Sequence record: PZ386974.1
From: a phage
DNA: 64,000 bases
Direction: 5' to 3' (one strand)
The translations under genes and the position numbers were made by a program. The notes beneath the pieces are model-generated. The model did no database searches. It worked only from the letters and a program-made list of their open reading frames with translations, and was not told the DNA's origin. Position 1 is the first letter of the stretch. Every line of letters begins with the position of its first letter. This document shows, in pieces, positions 47,202 through 51,868 of the stretch.

Positions 47202-47666
47202 TTATTTAATTTGTTTAGCAGACCAGATACGGTCTTTAATAAGTTTTTGGATATCTTCAACATACTCAAGGCTATGAGCGTGAGGATTATCTTTGAAGCT
47301 ATGTGCTCGTGCCAGTTTCTGGCCTTCTGTTTTGATTACTAAAAGCTCTTTAAGAATTGCTTCATACTTAGAAATAATTCCTTTGGCGATATTTTTTTCT
47401 TGAGCGGCTTTAGGGTCCGCTTTTGGTGCAGGTGCTTTACCTGTAGCTTTCTGGAACAATTCACCTGATGCAGCTAGGCTTTTAAAAACTCGGCTAACAG
47501 TATTAGCATTAGTAAAACCTTCGGCTTTAAAATCTCTAATAAAACGGAAACGTTCTTCATCAGAGGCGTCTTTGTAAGAATATTTACCTGCTTGAATTGC
47601 TGCAATCGCAGCGGCTTTTACATCTGAACTAGATTGTTCAGTCAAAAATTCAGCGTATGATTTCAT
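47202..47666 (-). CDS. internal protein (IP) candidate with capsid-targeting sequence (154 aa)
   Basis: N-terminus MKSYAEFLTE. Confidence 0.6.
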   Translation of the reverse strand: MKSYAEFLTEQSSSDVKAAAIAAIQAGKYSYKDASDEERFRFIRDFKAEGFTNANTVSRVFKSLAASGELFQKATGKAPAPKADPKAAQEKNIAKGIISKYEAILKELLVIKTEGQKLARAHSFKDNPHAHSLEYVEDIQKLIKDRIWSAKQIK

Positions 47667-47710
47667 GTTGCTTTTCCTAAGTTAATTAACTTATCTATTT
47701 ATTATTATGC

Positions 47711-47740
47711 AAAAAAAAGCCCCAACCTTTCGGAAGGGGC
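47711..47740 (-). terminator. intrinsic terminator at the end of the tRNA/small-RNA transcription unit
   Basis: A8 followed by GCCCCAACCTTTCGGAAGGGGC on plus strand. Confidence 0.6.
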
Positions 47741-48052
47741 TATGCCTTGCGGCAACCTTGTCGGGGTTCCACCTGCTAAGGCAAGTGTTTGTACGAAACG
47801 CCGGGATTCGAACCCGGTTATTAAGTAGTTGACGCTACTCAATATTTTTAAAAGGCCATATCTCGACCATATCCGAACGTTCCGTCAAAAACGCTACTCG
47901 GCTTACGGCAAAGATATTTCCTCGAATCGATAATTCGGTGCGCCGTTTCTGCTGTGATGTAAGGGGATATTAACAAATCGTAAAGATTTATTAAGACCAG
48001 TCCTTACTCAGGGAGCATCAGTCCGACGACTTACCGGTAGCGACCCGGCTTC
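47741..48052 (-). ncRNA. structured non-coding region with a tRNA-like T-arm (candidate small stable RNA or degenerate tRNA)
   Basis: No ORF; minus-strand CCGGG-TTCGAAT-CCCGG at 47801..47817, 10-bp palindrome GGAACGTTCC, repeated GAGTAGCGT; no complete cloverleaf could be folded by eye. Confidence 0.3.
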
Positions 48053-48397
48053 TTATTTTGACATATCATCAATTTGCTCTCGACGCCGACGCCATAGATT
48101 AATCACTTCATTAACACATTCGGCGTTTGATATATGACGGCAATAATATAATGATTCGCGTTTCTGGAACCGATGTTGCAATGGGATTTCGTTTAAAAGG
48201 TCTTTACGGTCAAAGTATTCAAAACTAGTTAACCCAGAACGGTTTTTAATGAACTTCCAATGACCGAATTCATTTTGAACATAGATGTAATCTGCATGTT
48301 GGTATAACAAATTAATCAATCGGTCTGAAATAACTGTATCATGTTCGTTAAAATAAAACGTTAAATCATGAACTACCAGATAAATATTGCCTTTCAT
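48053..48397 (-). CDS. hypothetical protein (114 aa)
   Basis: Start set at ATG 48397 (GAGGAA SD) to avoid overlap with tRNA-Arg. Confidence 0.5.
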   Translation of the reverse strand: MKGNIYLVVHDLTFYFNEHDTVISDRLINLLYQHADYIYVQNEFGHWKFIKNRSGLTSFEYFDRKDLLNEIPLQHRFQKRESLYYCRHISNAECVNEVINLWRRRREQIDDMSK

Positions 48398-48415
48398 ATT
48401 TTCCTCACTTAAAAT

Positions 48416-48492
48416 TGGTCGAGACAGAAGGATTCTAACCTTCAACCTACGGATTAGAAGTCCGTTGCTCGATACAATTGAGCTATGCCTCG
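48416..48492 (-). tRNA. tRNA-Arg (anticodon UCU), CCA encoded
   Basis: Manually folded cloverleaf: 7-bp acceptor stem (one G-U), D-stem GCTC/GAGC, anticodon stem ACGGA/TCCGT with loop CTTCTAA, T-stem GAAGG/CCTTC, discriminator A + CCA. Confidence 0.8.
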
Positions 48493-48498
48493 AATATA

Positions 48499-48572
48499 TG
48501 ACCCAGACCAGATTCGAACTGGTAACCTTTCCCTTATGAGGGGACTGCTGCTAACCATTGAGCTACAGGGCC
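48499..48572 (-). tRNA. tRNA with CAU anticodon (Met or lysidine-type Ile)
   Basis: T-arm ACCAG-TTCGAAT-CTGGT, anticodon loop CTCATAA with U33/A37, acceptor stem with one mismatch; CCA not encoded. Confidence 0.6.
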
Positions 48573-48651
48573 TAAATAACTTTCTATTATGAAAGGCACT
48601 TTAGAGTACCTTTGGTAATAGAGGGTATGAATTAATAATAACACATAATTC

Positions 48652-49167
48652 TTAAAGCAAATCAATCATTTTAACAGTTGGCAAAACGATTTCTTCTTCA
48701 ATATAAGCAAATTCGACACGTTCAACTACACGCAAGAAATCGTAATCATAGTATTCAGAAGCATAGCCAAGAATATCAATAAGACCTTGAGATATCTCAT
48801 CGCCTTTCACAAAGAACAGGTCGAATACGCGGGCTTCGTCTTCTTCAGATTTATTACCAAGGTCGACTTCAATATCAAAGACCTTTTTAATGAATTCCGG
48901 CTGGAGCTGGTCTGAAAACAGTCCTTCAACCAGATATTCGTAGATAATAAGCGAGCAATCACTGAATGGTGTATTACCACAGTAACGTTCAGCTTTAGTG
49001 CTGGAATGACGACTCTTAAATTTCTTCAAGAGATATTTAAACTGTTGGAGCTCATGTTCTTCCACACCAAATAATGTTTTGGTTTTATAGTTGTCACCGT
49101 CATTTTCCCAAGTAGTGACATCAATTACGTAACCCTTAGGAATTGTACTGCCTAAACAAATATTCAT
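48652..49167 (-). CDS. hypothetical protein (171 aa)
   Basis: ORF. Confidence 0.5.
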   Translation of the reverse strand: MNICLGSTIPKGYVIDVTTWENDGDNYKTKTLFGVEEHELQQFKYLLKKFKSRHSSTKAERYCGNTPFSDCSLIIYEYLVEGLFSDQLQPEFIKKVFDIEVDLGNKSEEDEARVFDLFFVKGDEISQGLIDILGYASEYYDYDFLRVVERVEFAYIEEEIVLPTVKMIDLL

Positions 49168-51133: not shown

Positions 51134-51868
51134 TTACCTTAAGATTGTTTCAATTTTAGAATAAAGCTCTTCTAAAGAGCCGTCGTTTGTAATAACTAAA
51201 TCGCCTTCTTCAATAGGCAACCCAGCTTCTGTAATATGTTTATCGGTGGATTCCGTACCAGAGCGAACCACATGAATAACTGTAGCACCCATCGCTCTAG
51301 CGGTTTCCATTTCATGGACTTGACGTGTATCGGTTACGACATAGTAATCGAAATCACTTCCAATATAATCCATATAGTTTAATGCAAAAAGCTTAACCCA
51401 ATACATACGGTCAAATAAATTAACGACAACATCCGTACCGAGGGCTTGCATAAGACGGCGGATTGACCATGTGTCGTTGATATTATTTATAGCTTCACGC
51501 AGGGCTTCATATGGTTTAATATCTAGATACGAATATCCACCTTCTAACGATGATAATACTTTAACATTATTAATCGGTAAATATTGACTTTGTAAATAAA
51601 TTAGCGCTTCTTCCATTAATTCAATAACATCCAACTTATTGATATTTAATGGCGTTTCACGGTCGTATCCAACACCTTCAAAGTATTCATATTTCAACTC
51701 AGTGAATACATCAGGGTTTTCAGCATGTTTACGTTCCCAGGCTATTGCTAGAGCGTCTTTAATCGGATAGGCCAATTGGTATTTTACGGATTTAAAGTTT
51801 GAATTGATGTAATCAGCAGTGGTGTCTTTACCACTACGTTTGATGCCGCTTAAAAAGATTAGCTCCAT
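51134..51868 (-). CDS. 1: deoxynucleoside monophosphate kinase gp1
   Basis: MELIFLSGIKRSGKDTTADYI P-loop and DRMYWVKLFAL motif match T4 gp1. Confidence 0.9.
   Translation of the reverse strand: MELIFLSGIKRSGKDTTADYINSNFKSVKYQLAYPIKDALAIAWERKHAENPDVFTELKYEYFEGVGYDRETPLNINKLDVIELMEEALIYLQSQYLPINNVKVLSSLEGGYSYLDIKPYEALREAINNINDTWSIRRLMQALGTDVVVNLFDRMYWVKLFALNYMDYIGSDFDYYVVTDTRQVHEMETARAMGATVIHVVRSGTESTDKHITEAGLPIEEGDLVITNDGSLEELYSKIETILR

Follow-up and report, generated by a model that had tools for sequence, protein, structure and literature searches.

What is encoded at the end of a phage tRNA cluster where no protein-coding gene can be recognized? The question is raised by positions 47741-48572 of a 64,000-nt stretch of phage DNA (PZ386974.1; the whole stretch is hereafter called the window), in which two transfer RNA (tRNA) genes are followed by an open reading frame (ORF) and then by an ORF-free stretch at 48052-47741. 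From the sequence alone, the initial annotation had proposed that this stretch encodes small stable RNAs like RNA C and RNA D of phage T4, or else a decayed tRNA. Knowledge of these two T4 RNAs dates from the 1970s. In this work, comparison with related phage genomes was combined with covariance models and structure prediction; the scans for tRNAs, transfer-messenger RNA (tmRNA) and Rfam families covered the whole window. The region is almost certainly the distal end of a tRNA transcription unit of an RB69-like (Mosigvirus) T4-type phage, carrying the RNA genes rnaD and rnaC. The feature is already known and is ordinary in this phage group.

Identity of the ORF-free stretch

In accordance with the initial annotation, 47741-48052 contains no ORF of at least 60 amino acids (aa), only frames of 34-45 aa starting at TTG or ATG on both strands. 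The best matches of the region are 96-97% identical and belong to RB69-type phages; the top match, SA79RD, was checked directly and is a Mosigvirus with an identical gene order, which is likewise found in RB69. In the RB69 reference genome, the homologous gap carries no annotation. The T4 genome (NC_000866) has two misc_RNA features at the distal end of its tRNA cluster, T4s001 for rnaC (species 1 RNA, 70908-71046) and T4s002 for rnaD (species 2 RNA, 71053-71171), and the ORF-free stretch is colinear with both in alignment. When the T4 annotation is carried over to this sequence, the RNA boundaries are as follows:

47937-48056, minus strand: rnaD homologue, 120 nt, identical to T4 rnaD at 105/121 positions (86.8%)
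47792-47930, minus strand: rnaC homologue, 139 nt, identical to T4 rnaC at 138/139 positions (99.3%)

The spacer between the two genes is 6 nt, the same as in T4. The rnaC gene lies on the same strand as the tRNA-Arg gene and 486 nt downstream of it, with a 114-aa ORF and rnaD in between and a terminator beyond. Judged by this colinear alignment and by the common position and strand, rnaD and rnaC of the window are orthologues of the T4 species 2 and species 1 RNAs, and the proposed likeness to T4 RNA C/D is therefore correct. A comparison with the tRNA regions of related phages, which had been recommended, finds T4 rnaD and rnaC at the same place before the cluster terminator; the order, strand, position at the end of the tRNA cluster, trailer and terminator are all shared with T4. 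The two loci differ in that T4 rnaD directly follows tRNA-Arg, with the homing-endonuclease gene segB upstream, whereas here the 114-aa ORF separates tRNA-Arg from rnaD. Moreover, the rnaD sequences diverge in the distal hairpin and at the end, which is CACCA in T4 and CACCG here.

In T4, RNAC was seen by Northern blot, and a transcriptome study of 2022 classed RNAC and RNAD as late RNAs "of yet unknown functions" (PMC9697503); the function of RNA C/D is also stated as unknown elsewhere (PMC3014915). Homologues of both RNAs occur in the T4-like phage BW1, the subject of an evolution study of 2025 (PMC12685909).

The assignment of rnaC was also obtained with a covariance model, R1, which was built from 15 sequences of other genera and holds no T4- or RB69-type sequence. 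It matched the window at 47789-47930 on the minus strand with 138 bits (E=5.6e-32), which is the covariance-model hit that the initial annotation had asked for. The annotated T4 rnaC scored 137.8 bits, and 80 chance pattern matches from bacterial genomes scored at most 18 bits. The Rfam check had a divided outcome: both tRNA genes pass, and the ORF-free stretch matches no family at gathering score. Over the window only the two tRNAs reach that score, and Rfam has no family for rnaC or rnaD. In a search of 47600-48700 at E values up to 10, matches over rnaC and rnaD were at chance level (selenocysteine tRNA, tRNA-Sec, 17 bits; isrK, 16 bits), as were those to small nucleolar RNA. The tRNA family RF00005 had no match in 47741-48052 at E up to 10, and ARAGORN found no tRNA there. 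No tmRNA was found in the window by ARAGORN or by Rfam, the tag frame and G3.U70 of rnaC not having been inspected. The weak tRNA-Sec match covers 47793-47885 (17 bits, E=2.8, gathering score 47). Its internal acceptor stem, formed by ACGGAACG (47885-47878) with CGUUUCGU, was considered as a helix and rejected, the fourth pair being G.U in 15 rnaC sequences and broken in 16, with zero double changes.

On its 3' side, rnaC is followed by two further elements of the transcription unit:

47742-47791, minus strand: 3' trailer, folding into a 7-bp hairpin (CACUUGC-CUUA-GCAGGUG) and shorter hairpins, conserved with T4 and Dhakavirus
47711-47741, minus strand: intrinsic terminator of the tRNA/rnaD/rnaC unit, hairpin AGCCCCUUCCGAAAGGUUGGGGCU followed by U8

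The strong terminator described initially is thus real. It was missed by a simple terminator scan because of its internal U.U mismatches, and the record of a close relative has a terminator feature under this match, although at an approximate position. Trailer and terminator together are 87% identical to those of T4. In a Dhakavirus that lacks rnaC the trailer comes directly after rnaD; it is probably a processing region, perhaps the one for the 3' side of the cluster transcript. Promoter-like matches near the cluster were at background level, and the nearest T4 late-promoter box (TATAAATA) is at 51484, away from the cluster.

Predicted folds of rnaC and rnaD

More than 12 T4-like genera are represented in the rnaC alignment, which comprised 31 distinct sequences. 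The common fold is a cloverleaf-like four-way junction made of a 7-bp acceptor-like stem, a long arm, a 10-bp hairpin and a T-arm, located in the window as follows, in 5' to 3' order:

47923-47929, minus strand: 5' strand of the acceptor-like stem, CGAUUCG (nt 2-8 of rnaC), pairing with 47800-47794; also predicted by RNAalifold
47876-47895, minus strand: apical stem-loop of the long arm, with loop L1 (UUGACG) at 47888-47883 and the first copy of GAGUAGCGU; 6 of 7 stem pairs changed on both sides
47819-47844, minus strand: hairpin 2, a 10-bp stem with loop L2 (CGUCAA) at 47834-47829 and the second copy of GAGUAGCGU; 7 of 10 pairs changed on both sides
47801-47817, minus strand: T-arm, CCGGG-UUCGAAU-CCCGG; its middle pair is G-C, U-A or A-U across genera
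47793-47800, minus strand: 3' strand of the acceptor-like stem, CGUUUCG (47800-47794), directly after the T-arm, and U 47793 at the discriminator position

The statement that the region holds no complete cloverleaf stands for a canonical tRNA, but the 139-nt rnaC does fold in a cloverleaf-like manner, with an acceptor-like stem formed by its own ends. The T-arm reported initially was confirmed at 47817-47801 on the minus strand and is the T-arm of rnaC. The reported repeat was also found: GAGTAGCGT occurs twice on the minus strand (ACGCTACTC on the plus strand, 47832-47840 and 47891-47899) and nowhere else in the window. As GAGUAGCGU, the repeat is the common 5' half of the two rnaC hairpins and is specific to the T4-type long arm; another version of the long arm lacks it. 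A 10-bp palindrome was not recovered, the longest perfect palindromes in 47700-48075 being of 8 bp (TTTTAAAA at 47846, GAACGTTC at 47875 and TACCGGTA at 48032).

The fold is supported by covariation. Across the alignment, 92.3% of the pair cells are paired, and a shift of the 3' partners by 1-3 columns lowers this figure to 36-45%. Changes on both sides occur at 16 pairs, and none of 500 shuffles had as many. RNAalifold, which was given no prior structure, predicted the same helices, with compensatory change in 20 of 36 pairs. In the acceptor-like stem, the third pair (columns 4-140) is G-C in 16 sequences, A-U in 15 and broken in none. The long arm has the base AGG/CCU and ends in the hairpin with loop UUGACG. 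The stem of hairpin 2 has another sequence in phage PG7 with an identical loop. In every sequence of the alignment L1 and L2 are fully complementary, and in Marfavirus both loops are changed jointly, to UUGGCG and CGCCAA (A-U to G-C); a loop-loop contact between L1 and L2 is likely on these grounds. An A-rich linker, AAAAAU, is also conserved. In Pectobacterium phage PM2, both U.U positions of the acceptor-like stem have become U-A, and the stem AGGUUCG/CGAAUCU has one G.U pair, the rest being Watson-Crick. The tail that follows the stem is U-ACAA here, in T4 and in most phages, and U-CCA in Marfavirus and PM2.

Compared with a canonical tRNA (RF00005), rnaC shares the 7-bp end stem, the four-way junction and the placement in tRNA arrays, as well as a T-arm of 5 bp with a 7-nt UUCGAAU loop that is joined directly to the 3' acceptor strand; an NCCA tail is encoded in two rnaC lineages. 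It differs by its length of 139 nt, by a ~70-nt arm in place of the D-arm, and by a 10-bp "anticodon" arm whose 6-nt loop probably pairs with the loop of the other arm and thus presents no anticodon. Two invariant U.U mismatches lie in its acceptor stem, and it is accepted by none of the tRNA models. A similar design, in which tRNA-processing enzymes are recruited by an acceptor/T-arm handle on a body that is not a tRNA, is known from tmRNA, from YrlA and other Y-RNA-like RNAs, and from mascRNA. YrlA differs in having an internal tRNA-like part and a Ro-binding stem built from its ends; in rnaC, it is the acceptor stem that the ends make up. The two hairpins with fully complementary 6-nt loops also recall kissing-loop RNAs, such as ColE1 RNA I/II and the dimerization initiation site (DIS) of HIV-1; in rnaC, the pairing would be intramolecular, a putative tertiary lock with one covarying lineage.

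The rnaD RNA has a different architecture. Here it is predicted to form a 5' hairpin (GCCGG and CCGGU around the loop GUCGCUA), followed by a long irregular rod that is closed by CGUCG/CGGCG and is variable in its distal part, and it has the 3' end ...GGCGCACC. The minimum free energy is -36.7 kcal/mol, with a z-score of -3.46. All 19 of 19 rnaD variants are predicted alike, with a hairpin of RCCGG and CCGGY around GUCGCUA, the CGUCG/CGGCG-closed rod and the end ...GCACC. The flanks are almost invariant, and for the distal hairpin (approximately 47965-48008 of the window) there are at least four sequence versions that are unrelated to one another but all still fold into a hairpin. At 48015 on the minus strand, the window has C at nt 42 of rnaD (GAUGCUCCC), vs U in 18/18 other variants; this C strengthens the predicted pair with G105.

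When phage BW1 was adapted to a semi-permissive host, only one mutation arose convergently, a single-nucleotide polymorphism (SNP) in rnaD (PMC12685909). By the coordinates of that paper, which allow an approximate mapping, the SNP falls within the distal hairpin, with ~41 nt between it and the 3' end of rnaD (PMC12685909). The unique C at 48015 was considered as this adaptive SNP and ruled out, since the SNP sits in the distal hairpin.

Distribution, processing and possible functions

Homologues of rnaC were gathered by BLAST and pattern scans. They were found in Tequatrovirus, Mosigvirus, Gaprivervirus, Kagamiyamavirus, Kanagawavirus and Winklervirus, and also in Gelderlandvirus, Karamvirus, Moonvirus, Mosugukvirus, Marfavirus and one unclassified Citrobacter phage. 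Most of these genera have an rnaC of ~140 nt within a tRNA array, and the space separating two tRNA genes is occupied exactly by rnaC in EcS1, CF-SP2, VPA32, LC53, Pet-CM3-4 and COW86c. The rnaD core motifs, common to 22 related loci, are confined to the T4/RB69/VR7/Dhakavirus group, and rnaC or the trailer invariably follows just downstream. In Dhakavirus CLBP2 (locus L043, 505-700), rnaD runs straight into the trailer hairpins and the terminator, and rnaC is precisely absent (junction CACCGAA|CACUUGCC); by its sequence, this phage is a natural rnaC knock-out. Scans of metagenomes and IMG/VR with the patterns returned mostly near-identical T4-like contigs. A split-pattern scan of bacterial and archaeal genomes gave at least 120 matches, 80 of which were re-scored and proved to be chance (at most 18 bits), the pattern being too loose for 596 Gb and hence uninformative on bacterial homologues. 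One further candidate homologue (L051) was rejected as a chance match.

Gene-free gaps of ~330-365 nt follow rnaC in two phages of the Kanagawavirus group, IME523 (L003, 1643-2006) and PEi20 (L033, 544-873); they contain no rnaD motifs and could hold other non-coding RNAs. In many GenBank records, coding sequences (CDSs) for "hypothetical proteins" have been assigned automatically across rnaC and rnaD (for example, RB51ncORF141c, ar1_138, vBKpnF48_274 and NM4.3 XRA41194). Apart from the T4 reference, T4T, RB6 and Kha5h are the only matches listed in which rnaC is annotated.

How might the two RNAs arise? In the scheme that we propose, rnaD and rnaC would be cut from the polycistronic transcript by the host tRNA-processing machinery. 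The tRNA-type handle of rnaC, a 7-bp acceptor-like stem on the T-arm followed by the U at the discriminator position, would be the recognition element for ribonuclease P (RNase P), the 3' trimming exonucleases and the CCA-adding enzyme. In genera with rnaC between tRNAs, the 3' side of rnaC would be released when RNase P cuts at the tRNA that follows. The ~70-nt arm and the 10-bp hairpin would replace the D-arm and the anticodon arm, and pairing of L1 (UUGACG) with L2 (CGUCAA) would lock rnaC into a compact, nuclease-resistant shape. The rnaD RNA, a rod-like hairpin with a small 5' hairpin, would have to obtain its ends through endonuclease cuts and not through RNase P; its 5' end cannot depend on an upstream tRNA here, because the stop codon of the 114-aa ORF abuts rnaD. 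The host enzyme adds CCA to some T4 tRNAs, and RNase P favors CCA-bearing substrates (PMC11143913).

With regard to function, we tentatively favor a role of rnaC as a protein-binding tRNA mimic, which would act as a decoy, sponge or scaffold for a host or phage factor that recognizes tRNAs. Protein binding is suggested rather than base pairing because the best-conserved loop nucleotides pair internally, whereas the acceptor stem and the junction hold the invariant features. For rnaD, the conserved core with a swappable distal hairpin hints at a host-specific interaction through that variable hairpin, a possibility that we hold to be doubtful. Equally speculative is a broader reading, by which rnaC would be the founder of an uncatalogued family of tRNA-derived RNAs in more than 12 T4-like genera, a movable module of tRNA arrays and a tRNA mimic titrating a tRNA-recognizing factor, with the distal hairpin of rnaD as a second, host-specific surface. 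If so, the core of rnaC would be a four-way junction locked by loop-loop contact and marked by the invariant U.U tandem of its acceptor stem; its candidate targets would be a host tRNA-targeting defense nuclease, a processing enzyme or the CCA enzyme; and the distal-hairpin surface of rnaD would fit the convergent host-adaptive SNP in BW1.

Several observations weigh against this picture of a tRNA-like RNA that is processed as a tRNA and has a function of its own. The two U.U mismatches in the acceptor-like stem are invariant in 31/31 sequences, and the tail in most genera is UACAA instead of UCCA. The annotated 5' end of T4 rnaC lies 1 nt upstream of the stem, so RNase P cleavage at this end is not proven. 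The T-loop is UGCAUNC in Kanagawavirus IME523 and in Winklervirus (UGCAUGC, UGCAUUC or UGCAUCC); although the stem still covaries, these loops lack the T-loop consensus, and full mimicry of the tRNA elbow is therefore not conserved. The L1/L2 covariation amounts to one event in one lineage, and in PM2 both loops are altered and their complementarity is down to 4 bp. Deletions of the tRNA region of T4 are viable. Together with the absence of rnaC from a Dhakavirus, this means that the RNAs are dispensable in some settings.

Other explanations were considered. The RNAs might lack a function of their own, being either structured caps at the 3' end of the tRNA operon or by-products of its processing; they would shield the upstream tRNAs from 3' exonucleases and position the signals for processing and termination. 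The location of rnaD and rnaC at the 3' end of the unit before the terminator, here and in T4, would suit such a role, as would the conserved trailer hairpins and the precise loss of rnaC from a Dhakavirus. However, at least eight other genera have rnaC within a tRNA array, flanked by tRNAs on either side, where a cap has no role; loops and a tandem U.U that are invariant across genera exceed the needs of a generic stable hairpin; and between T4 and this phage rnaC is 99.3% identical, whereas the adjoining rnaD is 86.8% identical. We consider this explanation unlikely.

To a similar degree improbable is that rnaC, rnaD or both are trans-acting small RNAs that regulate host or phage mRNAs by base pairing. 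Both RNAs are abundant and classed as late in T4 infection (PMC9697503), rnaC has the conserved AAAAAU linker, and the adaptive SNP of BW1 is in rnaD (PMC12685909). Against these points, the loop nucleotides that are best conserved in rnaC are engaged in pairing among themselves, neither RNA ends in a terminator hairpin of its own with an Hfq-binding type of U-tail, and no RNA that regulates in trans has been characterized for its function in T4 (PMC3014915).

The second proposal of the initial annotation, that the stretch represents one or more decayed tRNA genes left from a larger T4-like set, has become very improbable. It would explain the T-arm with its acceptor-like 3' strand, the weak tRNA-Sec match at 47793-47885 (17 bits, E=2.8) and the presence of 2 tRNAs here vs 8 in T4, but T4, with all eight tRNAs, has rnaC at 138/139 identity. 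The cloverleaf-like element is kept in more than 12 genera, where compensatory changes maintain four helices (92% of pair cells paired, 16 double-changed pairs, R1 score of 138 bits), and the tRNA-Sec pairing of ACGGAACG with CGUUUCGU is broken in 16/31 sequences without double changes. An ancient origin of rnaC from a tRNA gene is nonetheless plausible, though the gene is not decaying now. That the stretch encodes small proteins is just as improbable: despite the 34-45 aa frames on both strands and the CDSs RB51ncORF141c, ar1_138 and vBKpnF48_274 that overlap the homologous region, these frames begin at TTG, or at ATG on the non-transcribed strand, they are not conserved, the variation tracks base pairing and not codon position, and T4 RNAC was shown directly as an RNA, with RNAD classed alongside it from RNA sequencing (PMC9697503).

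The identification of rnaD and rnaC at this locus is thus a correct rediscovery, and for this genome the change is limited to annotation. In most RB69-type database records, the region is blank or filled with spurious "hypothetical protein" CDSs, and the CAU tRNA is called Met. The comparison also gives several handles on a function question that is 50 years old. These are a covariation-supported rnaC fold with a defined loop-loop contact that is open to mutational break and restore, the tRNA-gene-like behavior of rnaC in the arrays of many genera with rnaD confined to one group, and natural variants in the form of a Dhakavirus without rnaC and at least four versions of the rnaD distal hairpin.

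The two tRNA genes and the adjoining ORF

According to the ORF list, every gene in this part of the window is on the minus strand. The order on that strand is tRNA(CAU), tRNA-Arg(UCU), 114-aa ORF, rnaD, rnaC, trailer and terminator, and the three upstream genes are:

48499-48572, minus strand: tRNA with anticodon CAU (ARAGORN; RF00005, 54.0 bits, gathering score 29)
48416-48492, minus strand: tRNA-Arg(UCU) with an encoded CCA end (ARAGORN; RF00005, 66.6 bits, gathering score 29)
48053-48397, minus strand: 114-aa ORF, homologue of RB69ORF150c (ORF list; phrog_3355, unknown function, E=7.8e-50; annotation of relatives)

ARAGORN found two tRNAs in the full 64-kb window, with anticodons tct and cat, in agreement with the initial count. 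The description of a minimal tRNA set is apt: it is typical for the RB69 group, the RB69 reference being annotated with the same two tRNAs, and it is smaller than that of T4, of whose eight annotated tRNAs two are present here. The CAU tRNA is probably an AUA-reading isoleucine tRNA rather than tRNA-Met, because it is identical to the annotated T4 tRNA-Ile at 73/74 positions. It is named tRNA-Met in RB69 and in most related GenBank records, and tRNA-Ile in two records among the matches listed. In an alignment of four tRNAs, tRNA-Arg(UCU) of this phage and that of T4 have few identical positions; the Arg-UCU genes at the same place in T4 and in this phage lineage are apparently different genes.

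The 114-aa ORF falls within the span described initially, outside the RNAs, between tRNA-Arg and rnaD. It has no similarity to T4 Trna.3, and against Pfam it gave just a sub-threshold match to DUF2654. Its TAA stop codon (48055-48053) abuts the 5' end of rnaD. The upstream neighbor of rnaD differs among the phages: T4 and several contigs have a tRNA there, and other relatives have either of two different ORF ends. The junction 5' of rnaD looks like a hotspot of gene exchange.

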